DNA from: Trueperaceae bacterium
GTDB taxonomy: Bacteria; Deinococcota; Deinococci; Deinococcales; Trueperaceae
Reading direction: 5' to 3'
Assembly: GCA_965215565.1 (NCBI GenBank)
Contig: CBDCDZ010000004.1
Location: forward strand, 2,976,001-3,040,000
DNA length: 64,000 nt
A program made the position numbers and the translations under genes. The notes under the pieces were generated by a model. The model was not told the origin of the DNA, made no database searches, and saw only the letters and a program-made list of their open reading frames with translations. Shown one piece after another: positions 24,277 through 43,344 of the stretch (its first letter is position 1; each line of letters opens with the position of its first letter).

Positions 24277-24292
24277 GGTGAGCGTCTGAGAG

Positions 24293-24660: not shown

Positions 24661-27600
24661 ATGACTATGACTAGAGCTACCCTGCACCCCCGTATGAATC
24701 GCCGCCTCGCCCTCTTCCTCGCCTGGCTATTCCTTTTCAATACTCTCTTCCCGACCGGCTTCGCAGCGGCGCAAATACTGCTCACGGCGAAGCCAGGTCT
24801 GGGCGTCTCGCGTGTACCTCTAAGCGCGATGGCGTTCGACGCGCCCGGCTTCGGCGACCTTGCCGAGGCGATCAACTTAGCGAACGGCAACGTTTACGTC
24901 GCCGTCGACGCTCTCTCGAATAACACGCAGCAGAAGGACACCAGCGACACCATTGGCAAAAGCGGGTGGAACTTTACGCCACGTTTGGAGCTTGAAGAGT
25001 TTCGCGAGAACACACCGAGCAACCTGAATAGACTGACCCTGACGAGCGGCGACGGCAGCATCTCATCCTTTGAGCGCGTTCTGCCGAGCGCGTGTAGCGG
25101 CAGCTATCCAAAGTTCAACTTCAATGATGCGCCGAGCTGGATCAAGCGTTATGACAGCAGCGCACTTCGCTGCAGCCGCAAATTCTATCGCCTCGAGACG
25201 AAACCCGGGCTCAGCTTCGCGGCGAGCTACATCGTGCTCAAGCCTGGCACGGACAGCATTGCGCACTTCTACGCAGCAGACGGCAGCCGCACGACTTTTC
25301 ACAAGGACGGGCGTTTCGCCGACTACACGCAGACGCCCCACCAGCAATACGAAGGCGCAACGCAAAACGACCCCGAGGGAACGAGCGCAGCGAGCCCTAA
25401 AACGGAATTCAAGTACAGGACTTGTATCTCTTGCAACGACGCCTATTACGGGCGGATCGCTTCAGTCACCGACGCCCACGGACGGGTCACAAAGTACGAG
25501 TGGGGAGTCAGACATAGAGCCCACGTGTTGACGGACGTGCATTATCTGCTAAGCGACGGAACGAGCACCTCTAGTGCTGCTCGCTCCATCAGCCTCGAGT
25601 ACACCGGCGAGGTGCCAGGGCAGGTGCTGGTCTCATCGGTCACCTACACGACTTACGACGGTCAAGACGGCGATAATGAGGTCAGCCGAACGATTAGATT
25701 TACCTACCATCCTGACGGCTTCCTCAAGACGACAGTGCGCCCAACTGCTGGCGGTGACCTCACGACCGAGTATGGCTACGACGCCTACTACCGAGTTCGG
25801 TGGGTCGAGCAAACGGGTCAGCCACGGCAAGAATACGACTACTCAGGGACCTCCGAAGATTATGGTGGCACGCTTGTTAAGGTCACTCAAGGAGAAGGTG
25901 AAGGGGCAAAGTACAGCGAGTACCACTTCGACGAAGCGAACAAGTTGCGCAAAAAGTTTGTTAAAGACAGCACCTCGAACGAAGGGGTTGAGAAAGGTGT
26001 CTCGCAGGACGGCACCATCCAAGGTCTCGCGTGGCGCTACGCTTACTATGACAGCGGTAACGTGGGACTCATTGAGGAACCCTCGGGCAAGGTCACTCAC
26101 CTCATCTACGACGAGCGCGGCAACCTGACCCACGAGGCAGTCTACTCGGACCGTAACTACTTTGACCAAGTCTACCGTAAACCTGCTGCCCTCACTATTG
26201 AGCGGACGGGCAACACCTACGGTACGAGGGATGAGTTCTCGCTCACTGTCAAGGTGGAGCGCGACGAACTCGAGAAGGGCATCACCTGGTACCTGGTCAT
26301 GGACAAGAATGGGGGAGAGAAGGAGTACCTACTCGACAGGACGCGGAGCATCTGGTCGGGTAACGAATGGAGCGGAGGTCTCATCCCTGTGGATTCCGAG
26401 GTCACCGAGCGCGGCGATGACTACTACAAAGTTCAAGCTACGTTTAAGATGACTAAATACGGCAGCTCTTTTTACCGCGTTCCAAGACCGGTAAAGCTGC
26501 GCGCGCGGAGCAACCTCGACCCAAGCGAAGCAGCCACTGTGACGCTCACCTACTCACCGCGCATCCGTGAGATCGACCTCACACCAAAGACGAACTTCTT
26601 GATCGTCGCGCCGGATTGCGTCCGCCCACGTAGCGATGTATATTCGAACCCTGAATATCAAACGTGGAGGAATGGCAGGAAGACAACAGTGTCCACATGC
26701 AGCTCGAGCTATTCCATCGTCAAGAGTGTCGACGTCGACGTAGAGAGCTGGGTGAGCAACCCTTCAGCCTACAAGGATGTCACCTATTCCATAACAAAGT
26801 ATTCGTACAAGGGCGTTTCTGGCGTTTCTGCCCCGACGATTGATGCGAAAACCGGCAAGCTCAGTATACCGTGGCACCAGAAGCTTTCGGACCGCGCTAG
26901 CGGAAACACGCCCGATTCCATAACAATCGTGGCAAAGAGCAAGACGGAGACCTGGAAAAAGTCACAAGAGGTAACCATCAACCTCGGCTTTTTCGGCATC
27001 CGCCAGGCGACGCAGGGTAGAGGTCAATGGGACGTGCCAAATCCCAATGACTTAAACTATAAGCGCCAGTATCAGTTCGCGGTTGAGCTTTACAACAGCC
27101 CCTACAAGTACTTGCGGGTCGATTGGTACAGCCCAGTTACTTCGGAGTATGCGGTCAGAGGGTTTGACCACTACGGCGAGAAGCTTCCAGCAGGCTGCTT
27201 CGCCATGAAAAATGCCGGGTTTCTTTGGGAGGCAAAGACCGTTCAGCTCAAGGCGTGGGTCGACCATCCCAAATTCGAGGATGTCTCGGTCAGCGGCAAT
27301 ATCAGAACGATGGCACGCTTTTGGGGCATCGGTGGGGCGGGCAGTGAGACCTGCGGCGGCTACAAGACGGGCAACGGTATTGCGAATAATAGCAGCCTCA
27401 GCCCACAGTCGTACGTAAAACCTATCGCTCCTGAGACATACGACACAATTGAATTTAACGCCGATATCAGCCCAGACTACTTCCGCAGCGAGGAGCTGCG
27501 CCTCTCACCCGAGCCGCGCCCCAACGAGGAGTACAGGACCAGCTACCGCTACGACGGCGACAACCGGCTAGAAGAAGCTACTACGCACGCGCCGGTGGGT

Positions 27601-30600
27601 CTCAACGATGGCTATCTCAGTCACACCTATGAGGACGTGACCGAAGGTGTGAGCTACACCGACTACAGCGTCACTATCGCCGGGCAGACCTTCAAGGCAA
27701 TCCAGAAGGCCGAGCATAGTACTACAGTCGGCAGTACCCAAAAGCGCACGCGTGAGGACGTCTACGCCACTAATGGCTTGCTGCAAAGCAGCACCCTCAA
27801 GTGGGACGGTGAGTGGCGCAAGACCGCCTACACCTACTACGCTTCAGGCGCGCTTGCCCAGCTCGTGCGTCCGAGCAGTGACGGAACAGCCACGCTGTCT
27901 GTTACTCAATATAGCGATCAAGTCAAGAAGGTCGTGACGACGAGTAGCGTGAAGCCGCTCCATAGCGAGTCGGCGGATGAGATCGAGCAGACGTTCGTTT
28001 ATGACCGGCTCGGGCACATCGCCGCCGAGACACTCTCAGGCGTGGTGAGTGAGGTCGACCCCCTGACTTTCGCCGAGCACGCTACCGAGCGCGCCTTTAA
28101 CGGCTTCGGTCAACCTGTTTGGGAGCGGGTCCGCTTAGGCGACGCAGTCGCCAGCGAGCGGGGCTTTGCTTACCACGCTTCGGGCGAACTCCAGAGCGAG
28201 TGGGCAGGCACAAAGCAGAACCTCAGCCTGTATGAGTATCACGCTGATCAGAGCAGCGTAGGACTTTTGAAAGCAATCAAGCGCGGGGTCGCTAGCGTGA
28301 ACGGTGCCCTTACCACCATTCGTCAAGAAGTCGCCTACGGCTACGACGGCTTTCACCGCCTCGCATCTGAGACAAGTAAGGTGGGCGACGAGACCCACAC
28401 CACGAGCTTTGCGTATGACACGCTCGACCGCGTGACCCAGACAACGCTGCCCGACGGCGCAGTGGTCAAAACCTCCTACGACGTTCATGGCGAGGTGGCG
28501 ACGCTCGACGAGCCCTACGTCTTACGCAGCTTCGAGCGCAACGTGATGGGCTACCTCGAGAAGGAGAGCGTCGACGCTAAAGATGGTGAACGCAACGACT
28601 ACATAGTCGAGTACGGTCATGACGCCCTCGGTCGCGTGATCCACATGCTGCCAAGTATCACCGACATCAACCCGAGCGCCAGCGACCGCGCCACGCTCTT
28701 CCGCTACGACAGCGAGGGCAACCTGCGCTGCGAGATCGGTCCGGCGCTGCGCACCGCATCCCACAAACACGCCCTCACCGACGATCGGCGCACCGGTGTG
28801 ACATACACCTACGACGACCTGGGCCGCAAGGTCGAGCAGCGCCAGATGCTCTACGGCGGCGCAGCTAAGGACGGCGGCTGTAACCTAGCCGCCGGGAACC
28901 AAGCAGGTAGCAATCTAGAGCGCGACACCGCGAAGACTACTTACCGCTACGACGGCCTCGGTAACGTAGAGCTTATCGTGGACGCCGAGGGCTACCGCAC
29001 TGAGTCTGCCTACGACGCCGCAGGTCAGGTCTTCCTGTCACGCCGACAGGTCGAGAAAAATAACGATCAATACGCTGAGGTCTGGACTGCCTTCGACGGT
29101 GCTGGCCGACCCATCAAGGTAAAAGACCCCTTGGGCTACACCCGCGAGAGCCATTATGACTCACTCGGCAACGTGCTCGAGGAGGTCAACGAGGCAGGCC
29201 ACCTGGTCAAGCGCTACACCTATACGGCAGACGGACTCCTAGAGACTATCGAAGAGCCCCAGATGACGGACGGCACGCGCGACGACACTCTCTCAATGGT
29301 CGCGACCCAGGTCAACGTCTACGGCCAGCAGCACATGCATCCGACCGCGGTTTACCGCGCCTCGATGGATAAAACCCCGAGTAAGGGCGCGTCGGGTGCG
29401 AGTGGCGGTGTCAGGACGAGCTACGTCTACGACTGGGCTGGTCGCGTGACCGAGACGACTTTGCCAGACGGCGCGACCATCACCCAGAACTACGACCTGC
29501 TCGGCAACGTCACCGAGCTGACGAGCGCCGACGGGTTCACCACCAACTACACCTACGACTACGCGGGTCGCTTGCTGAGCGAGACCAAGCACGCCCGTGA
29601 GGGTAACGCGACGGACGAGGCAGCGGGCCTCGGCGGCGGGCTCACCTCGACTTACACCTACGACACCTTCGGCAACCTCGTCGAAGAGGAGGTGCGGGGG
29701 CTCACCACGACCTACGTCTACAACAGCTTAGGTGAAGTGATAGCCGAATCACGCCCGATGCACGGCGGAGAAAGCGATCTCTACAAGCGCTACGCCTACC
29801 GCTTGGACGGCGCGAAGACCGCTGCCACGAGTTATACTTACGCCGACGACGGGTCGCTCAAAGCGGCTCAGCGCTTCGCCTTGGATAACGGTGTAGGCGG
29901 TCTCACTGCGGGCAGCATCGAGACCTACGGGTTGGACAAGCTAGGCCGCGTGGTAAGCGAACGTACCGAGGGGGTGCGGTCCGAGACTGCCGACGAGGAT
30001 GAGAACGCACCCGACTTCAGTCTCACCGGTAGCGTGCTAGAAAAGCTCGTCACCTACGAGCGCAACGGCTTGGGTCTAGCAACTGCGCGCACCTTGAGCA
30101 ACCAGTCCGCCGCCGATGTCTACGCAGGGTTGCGCGACCCCGAGACGGGCCGCTTCCTCACAATGAGTGGGGGTAGACCGATCGTGGGCTACACCACGCG
30201 CTACGACTACAGCCTGCGCGGGGAGTTGCTCGAGCGGGTCGACGAGATTGCGAACGTCGACGCGGTAGGCAACCCCAGCGGAGGCGTGGAGCAAGCCAAC
30301 CGCTTCACCTACACCTACACATTGACCGGCAAGCAGAAGACCGCCTATCGCGACCTCAGCGTGCGCGTGCTGCGCCTGCAGGGGGAGGACCAGAACTTCG
30401 CGCCGGAGTCCGTTCTGCTAGCCGCGACCCAGGGCACAATTACAAGCAGCTACAACGAGCGCGACCTGCTCAGGCACACCGTGGTCGAGGATCGGGCTAT
30501 AGACGGCAAGGACACGCTCGAGACCACCCCACTCAAGCAGAGCACGACCTATTCCTATTACAAAGACGGCAGTAAGCGCGAGGTCAAGGTCGGCGAGGAC

Positions 30601-33600
30601 ACAGTCACCTATCAGTACGACACGCGCAACCGCGTCGTTTTGGTAAAGGATTCTAACGGAACGACTGCGCCCAGCCGAGCTGGTCACGACGACGCTTCGT
30701 CACAGCGGGTCTTCAAGGGGTCCGGGGCGGCCGAGATAGCGACGGAGTACAATGGCGACGTCGTGACCGAAACAGTCACATGGGATAGCTGCACCTACAC
30801 AGAGACGACTACTTATGCGCTAGAAACCTTCAAGCACATTGAAGAGACGGTCAACACGTGTAATCCGGACAAACCGGAGACTTCCGAAGCGGCAACCTCT
30901 AGCTCGACGACGGTCTATACGCCGGCGGGTCTTGTCGACAAGGTTTACGGTGAGGACAAGTACTACATCAAGCTTCCCTCCAGCGCGACAACCGACTACC
31001 TCTTAGTAACCAACGACTATCAAAACCCGCCCGAAAAGAACCACATGTCGTTGAGTTATAACACCTTCGGCGATGTGGTTGAGCAGGAGCAAGCATCCAC
31101 GTTTTCCCATCCGCCCTACGCTATAGAGTACGAGGTCGACATTCCTTACTATGACGCTGACTGCGATGAAGAAGAGGAAAAGAAGGAAGAGCCCGACTAC
31201 TCTAAGTGCTGGAAGGAACAGTCGGAAACGAGAACGCAGACCATTTCCAATTCAGGCGAAGACAACGTCCGCACAGAGACGTTCGCCTACACAGAAAACG
31301 GCTTTCTACTGTCCGAAGTGGTCGCCAACTCGAACGGTGGTAAGAGTTATACCGAAGGGGAGAAGGAGGTTCACTATAGGCTCGACGCAGTGGGCAACCG
31401 CATCGGAGTGCGCGGCGGTCCCTATGACGGCTACATCAAACGCTACAACGCCGACGGGCAGGTTGCCATGTTCTACCTCTACCAAGACGGCAAGGACGTG
31501 CCCTATAGCAAACGGGGTCAGGGAGCATACAGCGATTTCATCTACGACCCTGCCGGTGAACTGGTTCTCAGCGCAAGCTCGACCATTCATCAGCAAGCGC
31601 AAACGCTATATAACGATCGTCTTAGACGCGACTACAGCAGTACATACACCTCAGAGGGCGACGTGCAACTTCTCCGCAAGCGCTGGGGTTCACAAAAAAT
31701 ATCCAATTTGAACGACGAGGGTTGGGCAGACGAGCGCGAAGTGCGCTGGGACCACACCTTCAGCTTGGCAGATGGCATGTATAGCCAGACCAGATGGAAC
31801 GCCGCCGAACTCTTCGAAGTCACCGCGCCGAGCACGCCGCTAGCCGCACCAACTTCGAGCATCTCCGACCGCTTGGGCGTTGCGCCCGCCGAGGTCGCCG
31901 CGCCGAGTACGGAGTTACCAGACCTCGACACCGGCGACGTGTTAGCGCCGGTGGAAGAAGACGTTCCGACAGACGACGGTACAGTCGTCAACACACAAGC
32001 GTCATCCTGGACGAGCGACTCACTGCCAGCTCTCGCCCCGCTCGAGCGATCAAGTCAGCCAGCACAACCGCAGCAGTGGAGTGACGCGGCGCTACCTGAG
32101 GGAGAAGTCAGCGCGGTGGCAGAGCCAGACGCAGCCACCTCGACGCCAGCGGCGCAGAGCGAACCGCAAGCGCCGAGCAGCGCGTTGCCCGAGGTCCTCA
32201 ACACGACGGACGCCCTCGATATCGTCGCGCCGAGCAGCCTGATCGCCCCTCTTCCGCCCGTTGGCGACGCCACCGAGGTGCTGCCCCCAGGTAGCGCTGC
32301 GCCGCCAAGTGTAGGCGCAGGTCCGAGCGACGGCCCACTCGATATTGTGCCGCCCGCTGAGATTCAGCCCCCCACGGTTCCCATTATCGGCACGACGCCC
32401 GACGCGATCACCGCAGTTGCGCCGCCACCCGACTGGCGCGAGGACACGCCGTTCGTGGAGGCGTTCGGCAGCGGCTCGTCAGGAAGCCGCATCTGTAAGA
32501 CGGTGCGCGGGGTAAGAGTATGCGGCTCAGTCAAAAACGTCAACCGTGTGGCTGCAAGGATAAAGGCGAGCGCGAACGCCTCGACTGGTGGTAGACAAGT
32601 TGAGTTAGAAGTCAGCGTGGAAGCACTTGAGTCCGCCTTGAACTATACAGCCGATCTTACAGAGCAGAAGCTCGGGAAAACCGCAGCGGATCAGCTTAGG
32701 GAGATGTTCGGCGAACTAAGTAAGGGTGTTAGGGAAGGTAGCTTTGGAGAGATCAACTACGCAGACCTTTATAACCTCTCAGTAAACATTGCGACCGGTA
32801 TTGATGTCGGCAATATCTTGGCAGGTGACATCTCCGACGCATACGAGTTCTATATAACACGTGTGCCCACTAGCGGTGAAACCTTTGAGCCTATTAACTT
32901 CGGGTTTTTACGCGACCGAATGGCTGATGGGATGTATGTGAATGACTCTCGAGCCATTATCGGCTCAATGGAGATGCTTGATGCACGCGCTCAAGGCTAT
33001 GCTAACAGCATAGAGATGTGGTCAGACGAGGTTTCTGGTGACCGGCACCTGTTCTCTAACTTGGCTTTAATTGCCCCCTTCATACTGGACCTCCTGCCAA
33101 CAAGGTGGCTCAAAGGTTCACGAGCTGGGCGTGGAGGAAGGGCGCTTTCAGCGACTAGAGCTGGAAAATTGTCTGGTCTCGATGCTCAAACGCTCAATGC
33201 AAGGTTTAATCGGGGCAGGCCCTCAATACGATCTCGTATAGCTTACGGTTGTCCTAACAGCTTCTCCGCCGACACCCCCGTCGCCACCCCCTACGGTCTA
33301 ATCGCCATCGCCACCCTCGTCAAAGAGAAGATTCAGGAAATCTTCGGCTACAACGAAGAAACAGGTGAAGTCGATGTTTTCACCGTCACGCACTACCACG
33401 TCCACGACGACCCCGTCACTTATGACATCGTGGTTGACGATGATGTGACCGACAACATCCCCGGTGAACTCGTCGAGACTACCCCAGAACACCCCTTCTA
33501 CGTCTTAGGACAGTGGATTGACGCCGAAGACCTAGAAGTGGGAATGCCCCTAAGCACCTATGAGGGAACAGACCTCGTGCATAGCGGCACGGTCACCTCA

Positions 33601-34050
33601 ATCGAGCGCATCGAACAGACGCAGACGATGTACAACTTGACTGTTGATACTGCCCACACCTTCTTTGTGGGGGAGGGGCAGTGGTTGGTGCATAATTGCG
33701 GAGATTTAATATCACCACAGCGCCAGAATCACATTCTTAATGGTGATAGTACGGGTGGAGGACATCTATGGCCCGGTCAACCAGGTCATACACCATTTCC
33801 TCAGAGCTGGTCAGGCGACGATATTCTAGACAATCTCGCCGATATTGCAACCGATCCAAACACGCAATGGTATAGACAGGTTGGCGTAGACCCAATCTGG
33901 ACTAATAAAGGCGATCCCAGGAGATGGACTGCTTGGGAAACAAGAAATGGAGTAAGAGTCAAGATTGTATATGAGCCCGGTACAGGTGAAATCATTACTG
34001 GATTTCCTGATTCTAGACCTATCCCCAATGGATTGATCCAAGTACCCTAA
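24661..34050 (+). CDS. YD/Rhs-repeat polymorphic toxin: signal peptide, YD repeats, Pro/Ala-rich linker, pretoxin HINT, C-terminal EndoU-type nuclease
   Basis: MNRRLALFLAWLFLF signal; many YDxxGR/YDxxGN repeats; HINT SFSADTPV...TTPEHPFY...MYNLTVDTAHTFFV...VHN (33259-33696); tip with HILNGD..GGGH..TPFPQSWS..IITGFP. Confidence 0.92.
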   Translation: MTMTRATLHPRMNRRLALFLAWLFLFNTLFPTGFAAAQILLTAKPGLGVSRVPLSAMAFDAPGFGDLAEAINLANGNVYVAVDALSNNTQQKDTSDTIGKSGWNFTPRLELEEFRENTPSNLNRLTLTSGDGSISSFERVLPSACSGSYPKFNFNDAPSWIKRYDSSALRCSRKFYRLETKPGLSFAASYIVLKPGTDSIAHFYAADGSRTTFHKDGRFADYTQTPHQQYEGATQNDPEGTSAASPKTEFKYRTCISCNDAYYGRIASVTDAHGRVTKYEWGVRHRAHVLTDVHYLLSDGTSTSSAARSISLEYTGEVPGQVLVSSVTYTTYDGQDGDNEVSRTIRFTYHPDGFLKTTVRPTAGGDLTTEYGYDAYYRVRWVEQTGQPRQEYDYSGTSEDYGGTLVKVTQGEGEGAKYSEYHFDEANKLRKKFVKDSTSNEGVEKGVSQDGTIQGLAWRYAYYDSGNVGLIEEPSGKVTHLIYDERGNLTHEAVYSDRNYFDQVYRKPAALTIERTGNTYGTRDEFSLTVKVERDELEKGITWYLVMDKNGGEKEYLLDRTRSIWSGNEWSGGLIPVDSEVTERGDDYYKVQATFKMTKYGSSFYRVPRPVKLRARSNLDPSEAATVTLTYSPRIREIDLTPKTNFLIVAPDCVRPRSDVYSNPEYQTWRNGRKTTVSTCSSSYSIVKSVDVDVESWVSNPSAYKDVTYSITKYSYKGVSGVSAPTIDAKTGKLSIPWHQKLSDRASGNTPDSITIVAKSKTETWKKSQEVTINLGFFGIRQATQGRGQWDVPNPNDLNYKRQYQFAVELYNSPYKYLRVDWYSPVTSEYAVRGFDHYGEKLPAGCFAMKNAGFLWEAKTVQLKAWVDHPKFEDVSVSGNIRTMARFWGIGGAGSETCGGYKTGNGIANNSSLSPQSYVKPIAPETYDTIEFNADISPDYFRSEELRLSPEPRPNEEYRTSYRYDGDNRLEEATTHAPVGLNDGYLSHTYEDVTEGVSYTDYSVTIAGQTFKAIQKAEHSTTVGSTQKRTREDVYATNGLLQSSTLKWDGEWRKTAYTYYASGALAQLVRPSSDGTATLSVTQYSDQVKKVVTTSSVKPLHSESADEIEQTFVYDRLGHIAAETLSGVVSEVDPLTFAEHATERAFNGFGQPVWERVRLGDAVASERGFAYHASGELQSEWAGTKQNLSLYEYHADQSSVGLLKAIKRGVASVNGALTTIRQEVAYGYDGFHRLASETSKVGDETHTTSFAYDTLDRVTQTTLPDGAVVKTSYDVHGEVATLDEPYVLRSFERNVMGYLEKESVDAKDGERNDYIVEYGHDALGRVIHMLPSITDINPSASDRATLFRYDSEGNLRCEIGPALRTASHKHALTDDRRTGVTYTYDDLGRKVEQRQMLYGGAAKDGGCNLAAGNQAGSNLERDTAKTTYRYDGLGNVELIVDAEGYRTESAYDAAGQVFLSRRQVEKNNDQYAEVWTAFDGAGRPIKVKDPLGYTRESHYDSLGNVLEEVNEAGHLVKRYTYTADGLLETIEEPQMTDGTRDDTLSMVATQVNVYGQQHMHPTAVYRASMDKTPSKGASGASGGVRTSYVYDWAGRVTETTLPDGATITQNYDLLGNVTELTSADGFTTNYTYDYAGRLLSETKHAREGNATDEAAGLGGGLTSTYTYDTFGNLVEEEVRGLTTTYVYNSLGEVIAESRPMHGGESDLYKRYAYRLDGAKTAATSYTYADDGSLKAAQRFALDNGVGGLTAGSIETYGLDKLGRVVSERTEGVRSETADEDENAPDFSLTGSVLEKLVTYERNGLGLATARTLSNQSAADVYAGLRDPETGRFLTMSGGRPIVGYTTRYDYSLRGELLERVDEIANVDAVGNPSGGVEQANRFTYTYTLTGKQKTAYRDLSVRVLRLQGEDQNFAPESVLLAATQGTITSSYNERDLLRHTVVEDRAIDGKDTLETTPLKQSTTYSYYKDGSKREVKVGEDTVTYQYDTRNRVVLVKDSNGTTAPSRAGHDDASSQRVFKGSGAAEIATEYNGDVVTETVTWDSCTYTETTTYALETFKHIEETVNTCNPDKPETSEAATSSSTTVYTPAGLVDKVYGEDKYYIKLPSSATTDYLLVTNDYQNPPEKNHMSLSYNTFGDVVEQEQASTFSHPPYAIEYEVDIPYYDADCDEEEEKKEEPDYSKCWKEQSETRTQTISNSGEDNVRTETFAYTENGFLLSEVVANSNGGKSYTEGEKEVHYRLDAVGNRIGVRGGPYDGYIKRYNADGQVAMFYLYQDGKDVPYSKRGQGAYSDFIYDPAGELVLSASSTIHQQAQTLYNDRLRRDYSSTYTSEGDVQLLRKRWGSQKISNLNDEGWADEREVRWDHTFSLADGMYSQTRWNAAELFEVTAPSTPLAAPTSSISDRLGVAPAEVAAPSTELPDLDTGDVLAPVEEDVPTDDGTVVNTQASSWTSDSLPALAPLERSSQPAQPQQWSDAALPEGEVSAVAEPDAATSTPAAQSEPQAPSSALPEVLNTTDALDIVAPSSLIAPLPPVGDATEVLPPGSAAPPSVGAGPSDGPLDIVPPAEIQPPTVPIIGTTPDAITAVAPPPDWREDTPFVEAFGSGSSGSRICKTVRGVRVCGSVKNVNRVAARIKASANASTGGRQVELEVSVEALESALNYTADLTEQKLGKTAADQLREMFGELSKGVREGSFGEINYADLYNLSVNIATGIDVGNILAGDISDAYEFYITRVPTSGETFEPINFGFLRDRMADGMYVNDSRAIIGSMEMLDARAQGYANSIEMWSDEVSGDRHLFSNLALIAPFILDLLPTRWLKGSRAGRGGRALSATRAGKLSGLDAQTLNARFNRGRPSIRSRIAYGCPNSFSADTPVATPYGLIAIATLVKEKIQEIFGYNEETGEVDVFTVTHYHVHDDPVTYDIVVDDDVTDNIPGELVETTPEHPFYVLGQWIDAEDLEVGMPLSTYEGTDLVHSGTVTSIERIEQTQTMYNLTVDTAHTFFVGEGQWLVHNCGDLISPQRQNHILNGDSTGGGHLWPGQPGHTPFPQSWSGDDILDNLADIATDPNTQWYRQVGVDPIWTNKGDPRRWTAWETRNGVRVKIVYEPGTGEIITGFPDSRPIPNGLIQVP

Positions 34051-34071
34051 TGTACAAAGGTGGTGAGCTAA

Positions 34072-34356
34072 GTGAACATAGCTGCTGAACTTGCGAAAAC
34101 TGCTGAGTCGTTCCGAACTCGTTTTAATGAAGTAGTGGTTTTTAGAGAGGTAGGGTTTGATGTAGTCTCTTTCATTAAAGACTATATTGACCATCGTGAG
34201 TACGGGCTTGCATTTGAAACTCTCTGTCAAAACTTGCTCGAGTACGACATCGCATTATCCGAAGAGGAGTACGTTAGGTTAGAACATCTTGGAAACGAGC
34301 TGTATCCTGAAAGTGATCACGATTGGTATCGCCTAAAGGAGTTGATAGCGTACTAA
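34072..34356 (+). CDS. Cognate immunity protein (MafI-like)
   Basis: Small AT-rich ORF right after the toxin; DYIDHREYGLAFETLCQNLLEYDIALS. Confidence 0.8.
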   Translation: MNIAAELAKTAESFRTRFNEVVVFREVGFDVVSFIKDYIDHREYGLAFETLCQNLLEYDIALSEEEYVRLEHLGNELYPESDHDWYRLKELIAY

Positions 34357-34383
34357 AGTCTCACCAGTAAAGTAACCATACCC

Positions 34384-34424
34384 CACCATCGCAAGAGAAC
34401 GATATTCTCTTGCGATGGTGTGTT
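34384..34424 (+). terminator. Intrinsic terminator of the toxin-immunity pair; its U-tract is split by IS3
   Basis: 16-bp perfect stem CACCATCGCAAGAGAA / TTCTCTTGCGATGGTG. Confidence 0.75.
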
Positions 34425-34454
34425 TGATACTCCCCCGATTTCACGGAGACATAG

Positions 34455-35324
34455 TTAAGCAGCTTGAGCGAAGTGTACCCTCTCGAAATCATTAGGCGAA
34501 AGGTAGCCCAACGACGAATGTTTGCGCTTGGAGTTATAGAAGCCCTCCAAATAGCTGAAGATGCTGGTTCTGGCTTGCTGGCGGGTCTGGTAGACGTTGT
34601 TTTCAACCTCCTCGGTTTTGAGCGTGGCGAAGAATGATTCAACAACGGCATTATCGTAAGCATTGCCTTTACTCGACATGCTTTGGCTGATGCCTTTGGT
34701 GTTTAGCTCGGCTCTAAAGGCGTTGCTAGCATACTGAGCCCCTTGATCGGAATGATGCAGTAGTCCTGCTAGGGTGGAGCGCTGCCGCGTTGCCATTTCC
34801 AAGGCTGAGCGCGTCAAATCATCAGTCAGCCTCTTAGAGAACGCCCAGCCGATGACTTTGCGACTGAACAAGTCGAGCGTTACAGCAAGATAGAGCCAAC
34901 CTTCAGCGGTGGCAATGTAGGTGATGTCCGAGGCCCACAGCGCGTCAGGCGTAGCAACATCGAAGTTCTGCTTGACGAGATTCTCTGCTTTAGGGCGCTG
35001 ATGGTTCGAGTCCGTTGTGGTCTTATACTTCCGCTTTGTTTTACCTCTTAGACCCGCTGCTCGCATCAAACGCGCGACGCGCTTACGCCCGATGTTATAC
35101 CCAGCATCTTTGAGGTCTCGATAAATGCGCGGCGAGCCATAGGTGCAACGACTTCCACAATGGAACTTAATGATTTCCTTTGAGAGGGTTTTGTCCTCCT
35201 TGGCTCGCCTGCTCTGAGGGCGTTTCAGCCAATCATAAAAACCACTTACTGATACAGCTAACACCTCAGCCATCAGGCTGACCGCCCACCGACCTCGGTG
35301 TTCCTTCATAAAGGTGTACCTCAC
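34455..35324 (-). CDS. IS3 transposase OrfB (DDE)
   Basis: YGSPRI, WASDITYI, HHSDQGAQY, DNAVVESFF. Confidence 0.95.
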   Translation of the reverse strand: MRYTFMKEHRGRWAVSLMAEVLAVSVSGFYDWLKRPQSRRAKEDKTLSKEIIKFHCGSRCTYGSPRIYRDLKDAGYNIGRKRVARLMRAAGLRGKTKRKYKTTTDSNHQRPKAENLVKQNFDVATPDALWASDITYIATAEGWLYLAVTLDLFSRKVIGWAFSKRLTDDLTRSALEMATRQRSTLAGLLHHSDQGAQYASNAFRAELNTKGISQSMSSKGNAYDNAVVESFFATLKTEEVENNVYQTRQQARTSIFSYLEGFYNSKRKHSSLGYLSPNDFERVHFAQAA

Positions 35325-35617
35325 GTGCTTTCCTTGGCGAAGAACCCAACTGCCTTTTTTAGAATGTCACGCTCCTGCTTGACCCGCTCGAGTTCCTTCT
35401 TCAAGCGCAAATTCTCCTGCTGGTCGGCGGTTAGCGCAACCTTGCCGTTGCCCGGAAAGGCTAGCTCACTACGCTCTTGCGCCTGTCTGCGCCATTTGTA
35501 GAGGCTATGGTCACTTACTCCTAGCTCTTCGGCTATCTGAACGACGCTCACACCCGGCTGCTGGCTCAGCCTCACCGCTTCTCGTTTGAACTCTGCTGTA
35601 TACGTTCTTCTCGTCAT
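35321..35617 (-). CDS. IS3 transposase OrfA
   Basis: YTAEFKREAV HTH, ERDILKKA; A6G slippery site near 35354-35360 for a -1 frameshift. Confidence 0.95.
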   Translation of the reverse strand: MTRRTYTAEFKREAVRLSQQPGVSVVQIAEELGVSDHSLYKWRRQAQERSELAFPGNGKVALTADQQENLRLKKELERVKQERDILKKAVGFFAKEST

Positions 35618-35740
35618 GTCGCCTCCATTCTATTAGAGGCTTAACTGAGTCTCCGTTTTAGCGGGGCAATATCAGTTTTCTACGTCCATCTTTACGAATC
35701 AGATTTGTAAACTGACTTCGCCGACGACTAGTCGTGTCAA

Positions 35741-36367
35741 CTCATCAAAACCACCCCAGAGCACCCCTTCTACGTCCTAGGCGATTGGGTTGATGCAGAA
35801 GACCTAGAAGTTGGAATGCCCCTAAGCACCTACGAGGGCGAGAACCTCATCCATAGCGGCACGGTCACCTCTATCAAGCGCGTCGAAGAGACCCAGACGA
35901 TGTATAACCTGACGGTTGATACTGCTCATACCTTCTTCGTGGGTGAGGGTGAGTGGTTGGTGCATAATACGGGTGCGTGTAGCATCAATGTCGGGCACAT
36001 CTTTCATGGCGAGATAAACAGGCGTGGTAGAGCTGTTGGATTTCACCATGAAGGCTCGATAGGACATGAGGGATTTGCCAGAGTCGTAGGTAGAGGAACT
36101 GAGGATGTTCATGGGGTTTATAACGCAGTTGTAGAGGTCTTAGACCCCGTTAGTAATCAGTGGGTCCGCAAGAAGGTTCCTAACCATACGATGTTCCCAA
36201 GGGATTGGTCACGCTCTCAGGTACTAGAAGAGATTCGTGGAGCGTTCTCAAATGCTACATTCAACGGGAACAGTTGGACGGGTACCTCCCCAAGCAATGT
36301 GCCTATTGGAGGTTTTCTTGATCACAATGGAAACATTAACACGGCGTTTCCGATCTATACGCCGTAA
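35741..36367 (+). pseudogene. Orphan toxin cassette: partial HINT + second EndoU-type tip
   Basis: 35741-35968 is colinear with 33469-33696; the tip after VHN contains HIFHGEI..GFHH..TMFPRDWS..INTAFP. Confidence 0.88.
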
Positions 36368-36386
36368 CGTTCAAAGGAGTTAAGTC

Positions 36387-36734
36387 ATGGAAGCACAGGT
36401 GCGTATGTTTAGGGATGAAAGTGGGCTACCCAGAGCAAGGGCAGCCCACCCATTAGAAGCTTTGGCGAGCTTTTTGGAGTTTGATCTACAGGGAAGAAAA
36501 GAGGCTTCAACTGACCTTCTCAGTATCATTACGGAGGTTGAAACTCAAGAAATCTCAGAATGGGAGGGTACTGGAAATGCTCATACCCTCACACTGACCT
36601 TTGATAAAGCTCATATATACAATGAGTTTGCTATACCAATCTCTGAATGCGAACTTCCTCTTGCAGACTTTAGAGATGTTGTTGAGCGCTGGCTCGAGTT
36701 CTTGACTTATCAACGAAACGTTATGAAACCATAG
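36387..36734 (+). CDS. Immunity protein of the orphan EndoU tip
   Basis: AAGGAG ribosome-binding site, small ORF right after the tip; WEGTGNAHTL..LADFRDVVERW (YacL-like). Confidence 0.75.
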   Translation: MEAQVRMFRDESGLPRARAAHPLEALASFLEFDLQGRKEASTDLLSIITEVETQEISEWEGTGNAHTLTLTFDKAHIYNEFAIPISECELPLADFRDVVERWLEFLTYQRNVMKP

Positions 36735-36769
36735 GTCTTTGGTAAATGCCAGCTTGAGCAGCCGCCACC

Positions 36770-37125
36770 TGCAACAGCTTCTCCGCCGACACCCCCGTCG
36801 CCACCCCCGCAGGCGCAGTCGCCATCAGTACGTTCGTTGGTCAAGAGGGCACGGAAGTCACAACGTACAACGAGAAAACAGGGCAAGTCGAACCCAACAT
36901 CATCACCGAAGTTCACGTTCACGACGACCCCATTACGATAGTCCTCACCGTTGACTTTGACCTTACCGACGACCAGCCAGGCGAACTCATCGAAACGACG
37001 CCAGAACACCCCTTCTATGTCTTAGGTAAGTGGGTTGATGCAGAAGACCTAGAAGTCGGAATACCTCTGAGCACCTTCGGAAACACGAATCTCGTTCATG
37101 GCAGGGCAGTCACAAATGTCGATCG
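36770..37125 (+). pseudogene. Third HINT fragment, with no start codon and no toxin tip
   Basis: Reads CNSFSADTPVATP...LIETTPEHPFYVLGKWVDAEDLEVG; a TGA lies just upstream in frame and similarity is lost before the C-terminal HN. Confidence 0.85.
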
Positions 37126-37227
37126 CTGCGTATCGAGTACTCCTCAAAAGGCTTTTCTCACATCTCTAGTCTCATGCGAGTTTTTCACCTCAAAAACGCT
37201 GTCTAATCCCTAGAGTAGAGAGCGGCT

Positions 37228-38160
37228 ATGAACCTCTCACGCTTTTTTCACACCTCATACCGTCGTCCCCTCCGTCTTCTACTTCCGCTTCTGCTCTGTA
37301 GCAGCGTCGCCTCCGCCCAACTCTTCCGCGAGACCGTCGATGCAGCGACCTTCGAGTTACAAGGACCGGTGCGCAAAGTCGAGCGTACCGTTACACTATT
37401 TGAAGGTGACGTTTCCACCCCGCTGCCCCACCTCGACACGATGACCTTCAATAAGAAGGGCTTTTTGAAAGAAGCCCTTAGCCGCGACACGGAGAGTGAC
37501 CGCGTAACCGAGCACATCGTCTACGACCACAACGGCTCAGGTAAGCTCCGCACGGTCGAGACGTACCAGCAGGAGCAACTTCTGCGCCGCGACGAGTCCC
37601 GATATCGAGGGCGGAACTGGCGGGCGACTTTCTACTACGACGCCGAAGAGCAACTCGAGGCGGTTGCCACCGTCAGGGGCTACCGCAAGGAAGTACCCGG
37701 GGGAGTGCCCCACCGGACCTACACCTTCGACGAGGCAATGCGCCCCTTAGTCGAGCGCACCTACTTCCCCGATGAGGATGAGCCCGTACGTACGGTTCGC
37801 TATACCTACGAGGACGGTCGGCTAACCAAGGCCGTCGAGCGCGGACCCGAGGGTGAGTTGCTCTCGCGCGAAGTCTACATCTACGACGAGTCAGGTCGAG
37901 TCGAAGTCAAACGCTTCTACGACGCCACCGACAGCGAGCGCACCCGCACCCGCTACCGCTACGACGAGCACGGCAACGTCGTCAACGAACGCACGGTCGA
38001 CGGTGAAGATACGCTGGTTGCTTTGCTCCGCTACCGCTATACCTACGACGAACAGGGCAACTGGCTGACCAAAACGACTCTCTTCCGCGACAGCGAAGAG
38101 GCCGAGTTCGAGCAGCAGAGCCTCGAGACCCGCACCATCAAGTACCACCGGGAGGGCTGA
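37228..38160 (+). CDS. Secreted short YD-repeat protein
   Basis: Signal peptide ending ASA-Q; LQGPVRKV; YDESGR, YDEHGN, YDEQGNW repeats. Confidence 0.8.
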   Translation: MNLSRFFHTSYRRPLRLLLPLLLCSSVASAQLFRETVDAATFELQGPVRKVERTVTLFEGDVSTPLPHLDTMTFNKKGFLKEALSRDTESDRVTEHIVYDHNGSGKLRTVETYQQEQLLRRDESRYRGRNWRATFYYDAEEQLEAVATVRGYRKEVPGGVPHRTYTFDEAMRPLVERTYFPDEDEPVRTVRYTYEDGRLTKAVERGPEGELLSREVYIYDESGRVEVKRFYDATDSERTRTRYRYDEHGNVVNERTVDGEDTLVALLRYRYTYDEQGNWLTKTTLFRDSEEAEFEQQSLETRTIKYHREG

Positions 38161-38161
38161 G

Positions 38162-39295
38162 ATGACCGCTAAACTCGGTATCTTAGGCGGTATCAGTCTC
38201 GCCCTGCTCGCGCTGAGCGCCTGTAGCAGCGGCGACGGCACGCCCCCCTCGCTCGCCATCTTGTCCCCCGCAGCAGGTTCCCCCGTCTCGGGTACGACAA
38301 CCGTACAGGTCTCCACACCGGAGAACGCCAACGTCGAGCGCGTCACCCTCTATGCACGCGGCGCAGGCAGCGAGCGGCGTGGTCGTCCGGTCGGCTCCGC
38401 CGTGCAGGGTCCCCCCTTCGTCGTCTCCTGGAACACCACCGACGTGCCCAACCAGGCTGAGTTGGAGCTTCTAGCAGTCGGTCGCGACAGCGACGGCGAC
38501 GACGGCGAGTCCGACCCCGTCAAGGTGCGTGTGCAGAACGGCGGCGCGCCCAGCTTGCAACTCCTCACCGCGTTCACCATCGCGCCCGAGCCGGAGGCGG
38601 GTTTCAACGTGCAGACCCTATCGGGTCTAGTCAACGCTGCCGAGGTGCAGCCCCCTGCGGGCTTCGTCGCGCCGAGCCCTCTCCCTGACTCGGCTTTGGC
38701 GACTATGCAGACGGAGGGAGTGCGTGACTACGTGCTCGAGTGGCAGTGGGAGCCCTACCCCAGCGCTGAGAGCTACCGCATCATGCGTAGCGACGACGAT
38801 CTGGTCGGTCCCTATGAGGAAGACCGCTGGCAGAGCGCCGGGGCGGGCACGGGCGCGCAGAAGTTCTCGAAGACGATGGACGGGGCGAAAGCGGGCGACC
38901 GCTTCTACGGCGCGGTGAGAGCCGAGACGGAGGGTCAGATCACGGGCTACTCGAACGCCGACAGCGCCACCTTTTTGCCGCCGCAAGGGACGACCGCACC
39001 CGACGACGGTGCTCGCGTCGACAACGGTCGTCCTGTCCTGAGTTGGCCCGCCACCCCCGGCGCGGATGGCTACCTCTACTATCTCTACGACCGCGACCCC
39101 TGGGCCGAAGGCGCGACGCTCCTGTGGAGCAACTTCCCTCAGAGCGACGCAGGTCGCAGCGCCAGCTATCCCGGAAGCCGTGACGCCCTGCCGAGCGGCA
39201 CCTATAGCTGGTGGGTTGCGGGCATCTCCTTCGACGCGAACGGCAAAGCGGACGGCTTCACCTTCAGCGAGCCCCGGAGCTTCCAGGTCCCCTGA
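38162..39295 (+). CDS. Lipoprotein with Ig-like and FN3-like domains
   Basis: Lipobox LSAC; ILSPAAGSPVSG...VSWNTT; LEWQW, LSWPATPGADGY. Confidence 0.75.
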   Translation: MTAKLGILGGISLALLALSACSSGDGTPPSLAILSPAAGSPVSGTTTVQVSTPENANVERVTLYARGAGSERRGRPVGSAVQGPPFVVSWNTTDVPNQAELELLAVGRDSDGDDGESDPVKVRVQNGGAPSLQLLTAFTIAPEPEAGFNVQTLSGLVNAAEVQPPAGFVAPSPLPDSALATMQTEGVRDYVLEWQWEPYPSAESYRIMRSDDDLVGPYEEDRWQSAGAGTGAQKFSKTMDGAKAGDRFYGAVRAETEGQITGYSNADSATFLPPQGTTAPDDGARVDNGRPVLSWPATPGADGYLYYLYDRDPWAEGATLLWSNFPQSDAGRSASYPGSRDALPSGTYSWWVAGISFDANGKADGFTFSEPRSFQVP

Positions 39296-39298
39296 GTC

Positions 39299-39329
39299 AA
39301 AAAGCTCACCCCCCAGGGGCGAGCTTTTT
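39299..39329 (+). terminator. Intrinsic terminator
   Basis: AAAAAGCTC...GAGCTTTTT hairpin right after the stop codon. Confidence 0.7.
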
Positions 39330-39370
39330 CCCTTCCTAAAGGTTTCAAACCCTCTACAGTAGCCCTTGCG

Positions 39371-41407
39371 ATGCGCCCTTCTCTGCCTCCCTTACGCGCC
39401 CTCTGCGCTCTCGCTCTACTCCTCTTGAACGCCTGCGGTGGGGGCGAGTCACCCTACACGCTGACCGCCGTGCTACCCTCGCCGGTGACACCCGGTGAAA
39501 CAGCCGTCGTGTACGGCACACTCCCTCAAGATACAACCCTCTCACTCGACGAGACCTTGGTGCTCGGCACGCTGGTGCCCGGCGGTTTAGAGTTCACCGT
39601 ACCCGAAGCGGCGATAGCCGGGAGCCAGGTCCTCTCGGCTCGTATCGGCGGTCAAACGCTCTCCGGTGCCCTGCAAGTCGTGCCGCGCCTCGACACGGCG
39701 ACGTTGGCGGGGAACACCCTTACGGTACACGGTGCGGGCTGGCCTCTCGAAACATCGGCAGAAACGCCGGTCACGCTCGAGGTGGTAGGCAAAGCGCTTA
39801 CCCCTACGCTGAGCGCCGGGCAGCTTCAAGCCACTTTGCCCGACCTGACGCGCTACGGCTCCCTTTCGGTACGAGTCAAGGTCAACGACCAGGTGAGTAA
39901 CGCGCTGAACGTGGTGCGCGAGGCGGGTGCGGTTCAGGGTAAAGTGGTGTTCCCGGCGGAATCTGATGCAGCCCGCATACCAGCGTCACTAGAGGTTCAA
40001 GCAACAGACACCTCTAATTTCAGCGCCTTGCTCGTCTTCGCGGACGAAGCAGAACTCGAAGACCTCGAACTCGAGGGGCTAGAGCATATAGAGTCTCTCC
40101 CCGCCCTCGGCGTCACTCGGCTGAGCTTCGCCACCCGCGCCCAGGCTCGAGCAGCCTATCTATCCCTCAAAGCAGCAGGATTCGGTCTCGAGTACGACCT
40201 CCCCATTCGCACCGACGGCTTTGCAAGCTTGCAAGCGGATGTTCCCGATGAACCTGGCACGGGTCAGTGGCATCTGCCTCTACTCGGTCTCGAGCCCGCT
40301 TGGGAAGCCACGAAGGGCGGAGGTGTCGTCGTCGCGGTTGTCGATACCGGCGTCCAGCTCGATCACCCCGATTTAGTCGCAAACCTCCTACCCGGTTACG
40401 ACTTCGTGGACGGCAACGACCAGCCTTACGACCTCGCTGGACACGGCACGCATGTGGCGGGGCTTGTCGCCGCGAACGGGCAGGTCCTAGGAACCGCGCC
40501 TGAAGCTAAGCTTCTACCCATCCGCTCCCTCGAGGGCACCGCAGGCGGCAGCGCCTTCACCGTAGCGCAGGGCATCTTGTGGGCTGCAGGGCTAGGTGAG
40601 ATGGAGAACCCCAATCCCGCCGACGTCATCAACCTCTCCTTGGGCACGAGCGGCTATTCGGCCACGTTAGCGGGCGCGGTGACTGCGGCGCAGGCGACGG
40701 GTGTCGTGGTGGTAGCCGCTACGGGAAACAGCAGCGGTCCCTTGGCTTACCCTGCCGCCCTACCCGGCGTTCTCTCAGTGACCGCTTTAGCCGGACCCGA
40801 CATCGCGTATCAGCCCTGGTACGCCAACAAAGGAACCGGCGTGTGGGTTACAGGCTACGGTGGCGACACCACCCAGGACCAAGACAGAGACGGCTTTGAC
40901 GACGGCATCCTCTCAGCGGATTTGGGAGGCTACGCCCGGCGTATGGGCACCTCGATGGCTGCGCCGCAGGTCGCTGGCTTAGCCGCACTCGCGCTGGCTT
41001 CGGGGACGCCTGCTGAACTGGTACGGGATACGTTAGGTCACACCGCCACCGATCTCGGCGTGATGGGCTACGACGCCTCGTTCGGCTACGGTTTGGCGAC
41101 GGGGAGAACGGCTGGTCCAAGTACCCCTCGCAGCTACGTATTGGCGCTCGCCGAAAACGAAGTTGTGGGTTGGTCCTTGGTGCAAGCTGACGGGTCATAT
41201 CGACTCGACAATCTCCCTGTAGATCGTTCACTCGCCCTCGTCGCTGCCAGCGACGAGGATGGCGACACCGTCCTCGGCGAGTCTGGTGAGTTGCTCTCGG
41301 TCCCTGTTCCCTTTACACCCACGCCTGGCGACGTGCTCGAAGCGCGCGACCTCACCCTCACCCTCTCTGAGGGTTCCACATCCTATTCTTTGGAGGCTAC
41401 CCCCTAA
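39371..41407 (+). CDS. S8 subtilase lipoprotein with N-terminal IPT/Ig-like domains
   Basis: Lipobox LNAC; catalytic triad VVDTG, HGTHVAG, GTSMAAP. Confidence 0.92.
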   Translation: MRPSLPPLRALCALALLLLNACGGGESPYTLTAVLPSPVTPGETAVVYGTLPQDTTLSLDETLVLGTLVPGGLEFTVPEAAIAGSQVLSARIGGQTLSGALQVVPRLDTATLAGNTLTVHGAGWPLETSAETPVTLEVVGKALTPTLSAGQLQATLPDLTRYGSLSVRVKVNDQVSNALNVVREAGAVQGKVVFPAESDAARIPASLEVQATDTSNFSALLVFADEAELEDLELEGLEHIESLPALGVTRLSFATRAQARAAYLSLKAAGFGLEYDLPIRTDGFASLQADVPDEPGTGQWHLPLLGLEPAWEATKGGGVVVAVVDTGVQLDHPDLVANLLPGYDFVDGNDQPYDLAGHGTHVAGLVAANGQVLGTAPEAKLLPIRSLEGTAGGSAFTVAQGILWAAGLGEMENPNPADVINLSLGTSGYSATLAGAVTAAQATGVVVVAATGNSSGPLAYPAALPGVLSVTALAGPDIAYQPWYANKGTGVWVTGYGGDTTQDQDRDGFDDGILSADLGGYARRMGTSMAAPQVAGLAALALASGTPAELVRDTLGHTATDLGVMGYDASFGYGLATGRTAGPSTPRSYVLALAENEVVGWSLVQADGSYRLDNLPVDRSLALVAASDEDGDTVLGESGELLSVPVPFTPTPGDVLEARDLTLTLSEGSTSYSLEATP

Positions 41408-42765
41408 TGCCACGTTCGTCACTTCTACGCTTTAGGCGCTCTCTGCGCTCGAGTCTCTATTTGCTCACACTCCTGTTCGCTGCTACAACGTTCGCCCAGG
41501 TCAACTTGAGCGCCACCTATAGTGGCGACGTGGTGACCTTTGTAGGCGACCACAATATCCGCTACTTGGCAGACTACGCCACGAACACATTGGTATTGCC
41601 CGGCTCAGTGCTGAGCGACAAAGAGACCAAGTTTCCTGCGGGCTACGCGGTCACTTTAGAAGATGACCAAGTCAGAGTCGAAGTAGGTCAACCTTTTCGC
41701 GTTACCCTCTCCAGCAACGAGCGTGTCCTGACGCTCGTGCGCGGTGAGACGCTGGGTGCAGTGCCCGAGCGGATCGCAGGTGACGACCGCGCCCCAGTAA
41801 TGTACCGCTTAGCTAACGCTGAGCCGAGCCAAGTCGCCTCGCACCTCAGGAGCTTGTACGACTTACCCGTCGAGGTGGACCAGCGCCAACGCGCTCTCTT
41901 AGTGCGGGTCAATCCGCAGGACCGGACGCTCGTCGATGAGATCGTTACCGCTTTAGACGAAGCCCGTCCCCAAGTCATGTTCGAAGCCGAGATCGTCGAG
42001 GTCAACCAGTCGGTCACGCAGAGCTTGGGCATCAACTACGACTCGCTCTTCTCCTTTACCCTGACCGAGGGGGAAGTGCCTTCGGTCTTCGGTGCGGGTC
42101 CCTTCTCGCGCAACGGTATGTCGCTGACGCTTGGGTTGAACCTGCTCAAGACGAACGGAGCCGCTAACGTACTCGCGCGACCCAGGGTCACGACCTTAGA
42201 CGGCGTCCAAGCGCAGATCAACGCCACCCAATCGTTTCCAGTCGTCGTCTCCAGTTCGAACGGTCAGGAGAGCGTGCAGAACATCACTACGGGTATCCAG
42301 CTCTCGATGACGCCTAAGATCAGCCCGGACGGACAGGTGGAAGCCGAGTTGTCCATCTCAGTCTCGACACCGACAGGCATTACCTCGCAGAAGGTTCCTA
42401 CGTTTAGCAGCCGAGAAGCCTCCACTACAGTCAGAGTCGCCAACGGCGAGCCCATCGCCATCGGCGGGTTGTACGAGAAGCGTACCCTTAAAGGGGTGTC
42501 GAAAGTCCCTATCTTAGGGGACATTCCCATCCTCGGCGCACTCTTCACCTCCACCTCGACCGAGGAGCGCGAAACCGACCTGGTGATCGTGGTTACGCCG
42601 CGCATCGTAGATATGCCCAACGTGCGCGCGGTGCGCTCGGACGTAGCGCCGGTGGTCGTCGAGACGCCCGCAGAAGAAGAGACGCTCGAGACAGCGGCGG
42701 ACGAGGCGAGCACGAGCTTGGTAAATCCACTGCCACAAGTGGAAGAACCCGGCGAGCTACCTTGA
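41407..42765 (+). CDS. Secretin (GspD/PilQ family outer-membrane channel)
   Basis: Signal peptide; N3-like YRLANAEP..VDQRQRALLV; QVMFEAEIVEV, LARPRVTTLDG, TGIQLSMTPKI, KVPILGDIPILGALF, DLVIVVTPRIV; TAATG coupling to the subtilase. Confidence 0.92.
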   Translation: MPRSSLLRFRRSLRSSLYLLTLLFAATTFAQVNLSATYSGDVVTFVGDHNIRYLADYATNTLVLPGSVLSDKETKFPAGYAVTLEDDQVRVEVGQPFRVTLSSNERVLTLVRGETLGAVPERIAGDDRAPVMYRLANAEPSQVASHLRSLYDLPVEVDQRQRALLVRVNPQDRTLVDEIVTALDEARPQVMFEAEIVEVNQSVTQSLGINYDSLFSFTLTEGEVPSVFGAGPFSRNGMSLTLGLNLLKTNGAANVLARPRVTTLDGVQAQINATQSFPVVVSSSNGQESVQNITTGIQLSMTPKISPDGQVEAELSISVSTPTGITSQKVPTFSSREASTTVRVANGEPIAIGGLYEKRTLKGVSKVPILGDIPILGALFTSTSTEERETDLVIVVTPRIVDMPNVRAVRSDVAPVVVETPAEEETLETAADEASTSLVNPLPQVEEPGELP

Positions 42766-42823
42766 GCCCTTCGATGTGAAGAATTGAGCGTAGCACAACG
42801 AGGGGGAGTCGATAGACTGACGC

Positions 42824-43270
42824 ATGATTCGTCTGTGCTTAGTTTTTCTGCTCCTTCTTCTTGTCGCCTGTACACCAGCGACGGAGCCTGCACCCGAGCC
42901 GCCAGTGAGCACGAGTGATCCCGAGGTCTATAAGCGACTCATCGCGCCCTTTGAGGCTGACCTCGAGCGCTTAGGCGTCACCCTCACCGGCTACCAGACC
43001 TACCGCTACGAAGGCAATAACCCGAACGGCTTCATCACGGCTATCAACACCTTCTACCGCGCGTACCCCGGCTTCTGCCCCCTAGTCGACGCCTTCTACG
43101 CTGCGCCTAACAGCGCGCAGTTTATGACCGTGGCGAGTAACAACGGGACGCAAGTTCGCGTCTTCTTATATGACCAGTCGCGCCGACCGCGTTTGACGTA
43201 CGCTTACGTCGAAGGGGTGAGTCAGCAGCTCTTACCGGCGGTGGTTTGTGAGACGGTGACGGGGGACTAG
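42824..43270 (+). CDS. Small lipoprotein downstream of the secretin (pilotin candidate)
   Basis: Lipobox LLVAC; position only. Confidence 0.6.
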   Translation: MIRLCLVFLLLLLVACTPATEPAPEPPVSTSDPEVYKRLIAPFEADLERLGVTLTGYQTYRYEGNNPNGFITAINTFYRAYPGFCPLVDAFYAAPNSAQFMTVASNNGTQVRVFLYDQSRRPRLTYAYVEGVSQQLLPAVVCETVTGD

Positions 43271-43301
43271 GGGCGGGCTCAGTCCTATTTTTTGGCAAGA
43301 C

Positions 43302-43336: not shown

Positions 43337-43344
43337 CTCTGAGT

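Follow-up and report, generated by a model that had tools for sequence, protein, structure and literature searches.

The passage of giant Sec-exported YD-repeat toxins through the diderm outer membrane is for the most part a matter of assumption and not of knowledge, and this question is raised by a locus where the gene of such a toxin is followed by genes of a lone secretin, a subtilase and lipoproteins. The locus lies in the window (the whole 64,000-nucleotide stretch of DNA that was analysed) of a diderm member of Deinococcota, whose close named homologues are from Deinococcus and Deinococcales. The preliminary description of this window proposed a minimal or host-borrowing secretin route for an Rhs toxin, with protease maturation and mobilisation by a Tn7-like element.

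All ORFs that it listed were found at their coordinates on the + strand. The giant YD-repeat polymorphic toxin of 3129 amino acids (24661..34050, +), identified from profile matches and sequence features, is followed by its cognate MafI-family immunity gene (34072..34356, +; NF033691, 55 bits with a cut-off of 31; GC 0.42). Further downstream there is an orphan cassette with the C-terminal half of HINT and a second EndoU toxin (35736..36367, +, with the ORF of HINT half and EndoU at 35816-36367), identified by profiles and by 84.5% DNA identity of its HINT half to the main HINT, then the likely immunity gene of the orphan toxin (UPF0231-like, 36387..36734, +; profile, position, GC 0.44), and a third, decayed HINT remnant (36773..37076, +; 72.5% identity). 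The immunity and orphan cassettes were thus described correctly, while the IS3-family insertion among them (34425..35674, -; two ORFs, terminal TG..CA, GTT duplication), which is outside the system, had been overlooked. The short secreted YD protein (37228..38160, +; assigned by profile) was counted with the module at that time, but it was seen at no other fetched module locus, and we regard it as accessory.

The conserved module begins with an Ig/FN3-like (Big_7/FN3-like) lipoprotein (38162..39295, +), followed by an S8 subtilase lipoprotein (39371..41407, +), the secretin (41407..42765, +) and a small alpha/beta lipoprotein of 148 amino acids (42824..43270, +). The stop codon of S8 overlaps the secretin start (TAATG), i.e., the two genes are translationally coupled. 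Export signals on the toxin and the downstream genes were judged by eye, and the lipobox Cys is kept in the homologues of the three lipoproteins (20/20 Ig, 20/21 S8, 17/17 small lipoprotein). As previously described, no PAAR, VgrG, TpsB, pilin, pilus ATPase or platform gene was found with Pfam among the 49 ORFs of the window. The gap that separates the Ig gene from S8 contains a weak A/T-flanked hairpin (39303-39331; z = -1.86, with 13/200 shuffles folding equally well), which might, on this weak evidence, tune stoichiometry; the promoter and terminator scan gave no signal exceeding shuffles.

From N- to C-terminus, the toxin consists of a signal peptide (the single hydrophobic 19-mer above 1.5 starts at residue 16), a family-specific N-terminal region, YD repeats, a Pro/Ser/Thr-rich linker (~2400-2620), a helical pre-toxin region, PT-HINT (2875-3012) and bacterial EndoU (3035-3118), where RHS repeats, PT-HINT and EndoU are Pfam matches. 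The N-terminus of toxins of this family has a hydrophobic leader and a conserved motif, and the C-terminal end a low-complexity linker, a helical region (PT-TG matches in 3/19 toxins, one below the cut-off), an optional HINT (present in 12/19, absent in 7/19) and diverse tips, with C-terminal matches among the 19 toxins, some of them weak, to EndoU, CdiA_C, ART-HYD1, WHH and Ntox44. With a conserved N-terminus, a variable C-terminal toxin, an adjacent immunity gene and orphan cassettes, this is a polymorphic toxin, predicted to be antibacterial. Its N-terminal region matches only 84 clusters among 1.84 billion representatives. Another family member in the same genome (G000:C4:429341-440563), with no module nearby, is broken by an insertion of roughly 7 kb, which carries a transposase-like ORF.

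The designation as an Rhs toxin can be kept only in part. The YD/RHS repeats of canonical Rhs are present, whereas the Rhs-associated core TIGR03696 was found in 0/15 family members (control protein P0199 was positive) and the RxYxPxxGxF motif is missing from 19/19 toxins; judged by its sequence, the toxin is therefore not a canonical Rhs, as the autoprotease core (DPxG aspartyl autoprotease) is missing. Toxins without this core, and in 7/19 cases also without HINT, suit an external S8 protease. Features of Rhs toxins exported by T6SS were likewise not found, as there is no PAAR domain among the window ORFs and no TssC/VipB in the host genome, which is 99.99% complete (the E. coli control was positive).

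The module secretin was found in 28 of 364 Deinococcota genomes (the unpublished genome G033 in this set is a background row only), in 31 copies, and neighbourhoods were examined for all 30 copies other than that of the window, with frameshifted genes included in the counts. Adjacent to the secretin are the Ig lipoprotein at 23/31 copies, S8 at 24/31 and the small lipoprotein at 18/31, in the usual operon order of Ig/FN3 lipoprotein, S8 lipoprotease, secretin and small lipoprotein, so the synteny is conserved, with no module gene besides the secretin being universal. A toxin-family gene is present within 15 kb of the secretin at 23/31 copies, and this adjacency spans divergent, convergent and tandem layouts and three families (f1-f3), with toxin identity of about 25-37%. 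Among the eight copies with no toxin nearby, three are at contig borders (G238, G239, G273), and at two (G221:C53, and G272, which has assembly gaps) HINT-toxin cassettes adjoin the secretin. What look like Ig-secretin and S8-HINT fusions in G272 were discounted, since they span runs of N. Truly without an adjacent toxin are G056, G243 and the fragment in G132; no toxin was found in the latter two, while G056 keeps an intact secretin and small lipoprotein, with the toxin being a distant truncated remnant. In G056 (L010:13405-18792), the secretin and small lipoprotein stand back-to-back with a repeat-rich lipoprotein of 1015 amino acids in place of the toxin, possibly an alternative substrate or a leftover.

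The arrangement is also present on two named plasmids, D. wulumuqiensis pDrdI and D. gobiensis P6, and one complete module copy is on a 53-kb Deinococcus gobiensis plasmid (in view of their overlap with the genome set, pDrdI, P6 and loci L015-L018 were counted only once). Of 80 metagenome loci, four are in the secretin clade, one with toxin, Ig and S8, two with a partial secretin and the small lipoprotein, and one of 3.4 kb with the secretin alone; none of the module genes was found at the 76 distant metagenome secretin loci.

The toxin family was detected in 23/364 genomes with the core query and in 26/364 with an N-terminal query, which was added because the core query missed plain toxin loci in G101 and G224, giving 28 in union, with G249 retained (E 3.8e-6, probably a generic YD protein). 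Secretin and toxin are present together in 23 genomes vs. 2.2 expected by chance, with 5 secretin-only, 5 toxin-only and 331 with neither, and these counts are descriptive, since the genomes are related and a p-value overstates. The tie of the secretin cluster to the toxin is thus strongly supported by synteny and co-occurrence, and across the 364 genomes the cluster does not commonly stand without such toxin genes. The assemblies of the toxin-only genomes have 170-820 contigs, and one of these genomes counts through a weak generic match; toxin with no module secretin detected was recorded in four fragmented assemblies (G223, G227, G232, G270), and three toxin-only genomes that were checked have only one secretin each. 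Several genomes carry extra toxin copies distant from the module. Full-length Ig lipoprotein matches (E below 1e-120) are confined to module genomes, with partial or weaker ones in six others, while the small lipoprotein has three matches beyond the 28 genomes, of which that in G102 adjoins a secretin fragment among HINT cassettes. In secretin and toxin trees of 20 pairs, several clades are common to both, and each tree pairs the two G219 modules across species; congruence is modest (Spearman rho 0.26, a value reached by 90/2000 permutations), with G143b discordant. Module and toxin are inherited together across Deinococcales.

Concerning the secretin itself, the family comprises 116 proteins at E below 1e-72 among the matches listed, followed by a drop to 4e-43. 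PF00263 and PF03958 were found in 104/104 family members, and the module secretin scores below every NCBIfam subtype cut-off. In a tree of 58 sequences, which contained no labelled GspD or PilQ references, the 22 family members fall in a single clade (support 0.997), separate from Deinococcota housekeeping secretins, and the module secretin shares only 27-28% identity with the host housekeeping secretin, lying outside its clade. In the predicted model (pLDDT 88) there is one beta-domain (30-117), N3, the barrel and a low-complexity tail, with no N0-N2 and no S domain. The beta-domain resembles AMIN of AmiC (Z 8.9, rmsd 3.0, 86 aligned) and of PilQ (Z 8.5), and the atlas lead is AMIN (0.82), giving a predicted order of AMIN, N3 and secretin barrel. 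A search of 29 regions (760 kb) around module loci and of the Tn7-like element, with eight host Pil proteins and a pilin motif, gave no host-type PilB/T/C/M/N/O homologue and no pilin, although very divergent versions could escape it.

As for the partners, the S8 triad (D325/H358/S528) is invariant in 21/21 aligned homologues. IPT/TIG-like domains follow the lipid anchor of S8 (PF01833 matched in 8/20 members), together with a probable prodomain, and no sequence match of the S8 N-terminus to the chains of PDB 8co1 was found. Complex prediction for the S8 IPT/TIG region with two copies of secretin residues 125-405 gave a score of 0.00, which was weighed neither way. The small lipoprotein has two further invariant Cys besides the lipobox, and a pilotin-like role is possible. 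Its model (pLDDT 90) has no clear fold match, as the top one was PA1624 (Z 6.4, rmsd 3.5, 99 aligned), no Foldseek hit had E below 0.001, and the best atlas score (0.89) was for unnamed clusters. A distant Ig-lipoprotein and S8 pair from another family of the class was observed at L189 (G363:C43), in a 57% complete genome, with no secretin on its 5-kb contig.

The copy in the window is carried by a Tn7-like element of 46,339 bp (2269..48607; tnsA, tnsB, tnsC and tniQ at 43345-48495), with TG..CA ends and a 5-bp duplication (GGCGG), which splits comM. Mobilisation by such an element was therefore rightly noted for this copy; it is not the general vehicle, since other copies are on plasmids and chromosomes. 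In the same genome, a sister Tn7-like element has both flanking gene sets in common with it, with toxin and module jointly missing, which implies that they entered as one block. That element (G000:C4:3,670,000-3,713,500; TnsB 52% and TniQ 58% identical) ends beside a gene that we take, from a motif, to be comEC, cut at the start of its metallo-beta-lactamase domain, and both elements may disable competence genes. A near precedent is Tn6022, which targets comM (PMC10293859). At the left end of the element in the window, an ORF of 632 amino acids (2356-4254) that is matched by neither Pfam nor NCBIfam could be the selector of the comM target (a TnsF-like role). Other cargo includes a UvrD-PD-(D/E)XK protein, a type III restriction-modification pair and an HTH-IrrE-type peptidase gene (9312-20275), and a block at 20537-24276 (HTH, two secreted proteins, a LuxR-type gene, a 104-aa gene and a PPC-domain lipoprotein), complete or partial copies of which are present at two to three further genome sites near tns-like genes.

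To explain these observations, we propose that the module is the toxin's own outer-membrane exit, and that S8 makes the cut that canonical Rhs proteins make themselves, which we consider probable. Sec would carry the toxin into the periplasm, from which it would pass the outer membrane through the short secretin, whose AMIN domain is predicted to tether this pore to peptidoglycan. Passage would most likely be by threading, with folding on the outside, and not by the push of a pilus. Pore assembly or guidance of the substrate may fall to the Ig and small lipoproteins, while S8, anchored by its lipid, would take over from the missing Rhs autoprotease and cleave the toxin, with the Pro/Ser/Thr linker as the probable site. 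HINT cleavage occurs at Asn, and once the toxin has reached the target cell, HINT would free EndoU at N3012, with MafI presumably protecting the producer. Two-step export via an outer-membrane channel with no inner-membrane motor is known from curli (CsgG/E/F) and two-partner secretion; these channels are unrelated to the module secretin, and the analogy is only mechanistic. Counting against an exit of the toxin's own are the variable presence of the other module genes, the secretins with no toxin beside them, the toxin genes away from a module secretin and the modest congruence of the trees. In addition, no energy source is evident for opening the secretin gate, and a housekeeping secretin, also present in 6/6 module genomes checked, could serve toxin export instead.

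Known secretins work with a motor, and N0 is the docking site for PilP/GspC of the inner-membrane platform. The module secretin could be a substrate-specific outer ring on the type IV pilus or T2SS motor of the host, with a T2SS-like push of the folded toxin, perhaps as a mixed ring with the host secretin or via a lipoprotein bridge, which makes it a sub-case of the export reading that differs only by its energy source. The host genome separately encodes a pilMNOP-Q operon, four PilB/PilT-family ATPases and PilC (names assigned partly from sequence and order), and Bcn-A relies on the T2SS of its host (PMC7259588). However, a predicted secretin with only AMIN and N3 before the barrel, and with low identity to the host secretin in a different clade, makes docking onto the pilus motor less likely, hence our leaning to threading with folding outside; we hold the use of a host motor to be unlikely, and of the two routes in the preliminary description the host-borrowing one is weakened.

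It is also conceivable that the secretin displays or anchors S8 and the Ig lipoproteins at the surface, where they would breach the S-layer of a rival or activate the toxin, with the toxin itself leaving via the housekeeping secretin, vesicles or lysis. The coupling of S8 to the secretin fits this, as does the IPT/TIG fold of the S8 N-terminus (8/20 members), which is that of DR_1364, the belt of a D. radiodurans secretin (PMC10828601), and a folded shell of 300 kDa would be a tight fit for the pore. Against it, G117, G241 and G056 retain the secretin with no adjacent S8, and the toxin family seldom occurs without the module secretin, so we find this display role rather doubtful, somewhat more so than a borrowed motor. 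That module and toxin are independent cargo, merely sharing common mobile islands, is very improbable. Many copies are indeed on plasmids or near transposases, several are decaying, and the G056 secretin adjoins a different large lipoprotein; yet the adjacency holds in three orientations and across three families with divergent toxins, the two trees have clades in common, and the sister element lacks toxin and module together between common flanks. Adjacency and co-occurrence counts largely refute it, and an exit dedicated to the toxin remains our preferred explanation.

With regard to known systems, the Sec/T2SS Rhs toxins described by Zhang et al. 2012 (PMC3482391) and Bcn-A (PMC7259588) have in common with the present family the signal-peptide route, YD repeats, HINT, variable nuclease tips, immunity genes and orphan cassettes. 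The activity of the Rhs-like Bcn-A of Xanthomonas perforans requires the secretin XpsD and uses the full host T2SS (PMC7259588), whereas the present toxin travels with a separate secretin clade and lipoproteins. Table 1 of Zhang et al. 2012 gives no signature neighbourhood genes for Sec/T2SS toxins, and the word Deinococcus does not occur in the examined part of its text (PMC3482391). WapA of Bacillus and Streptococcus is likewise a Sec-exported YD toxin of about 300 kDa, but it belongs to monoderm hosts and self-cleaves at DPxG core motifs (PMC12704120), unlike the present family, which is without the DPxG core and has an outer membrane to pass.

S8 proteases are found alongside several secretion routes (PMC9424270). 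In S8-PTS (Li, Tan, Zhang 2022, PMC9424270) and with mycosins, an S8 gene is coupled to toxin-immunity pairs, with processing proposed, and at module loci S8 with an intact triad is also linked to a toxin-immunity pair. However, S8-PTS as described there is Gram-positive, with BetaH toxins and no secretin among its three components, while the present S8 is a lipoprotein with IPT/TIG and the toxin is a YD-repeat protein with a different N-terminus in a diderm host. The DR_0774 secretin complex of Deinococcus radiodurans (PMC10828601, PDB 8co1) is likewise without an S domain and has an IPT/TIG lipoprotein partner, which belts this housekeeping secretin, and we treat this as a lead only. DR_0774 is a long secretin with N0-N3 plus a flange, unlike the short, AMIN-led, accessory secretin of the module, which is 19-24% identical to it in structural alignments.

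No description of the module was found in the open-access literature searched (subscription papers and supplements were outside its scope), and the toxin-linked secretin module is real, conserved and apparently undescribed. It names a specific pore, a protease and lipoproteins for the export of giant YD toxins, and since a complete copy is on the 53-kb D. gobiensis plasmid, the question is testable in a harmless and tractable genus. The module is a variant of a polymorphic toxin system, and it would be a new secretion-system class if motor-free. That a stand-alone secretin with lipoproteins and a subtilase forms such a class, exporting toxins of 250-400 kDa with no ATPase, pilus or inner-membrane platform, we advance only tentatively. 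We know of no secretin-based protein export without an inner-membrane engine so far, and if no host motor is needed, this would, to our knowledge, be the first. The module would also point to an interbacterial weapon in this phylum, for which none is described in the literature searched.
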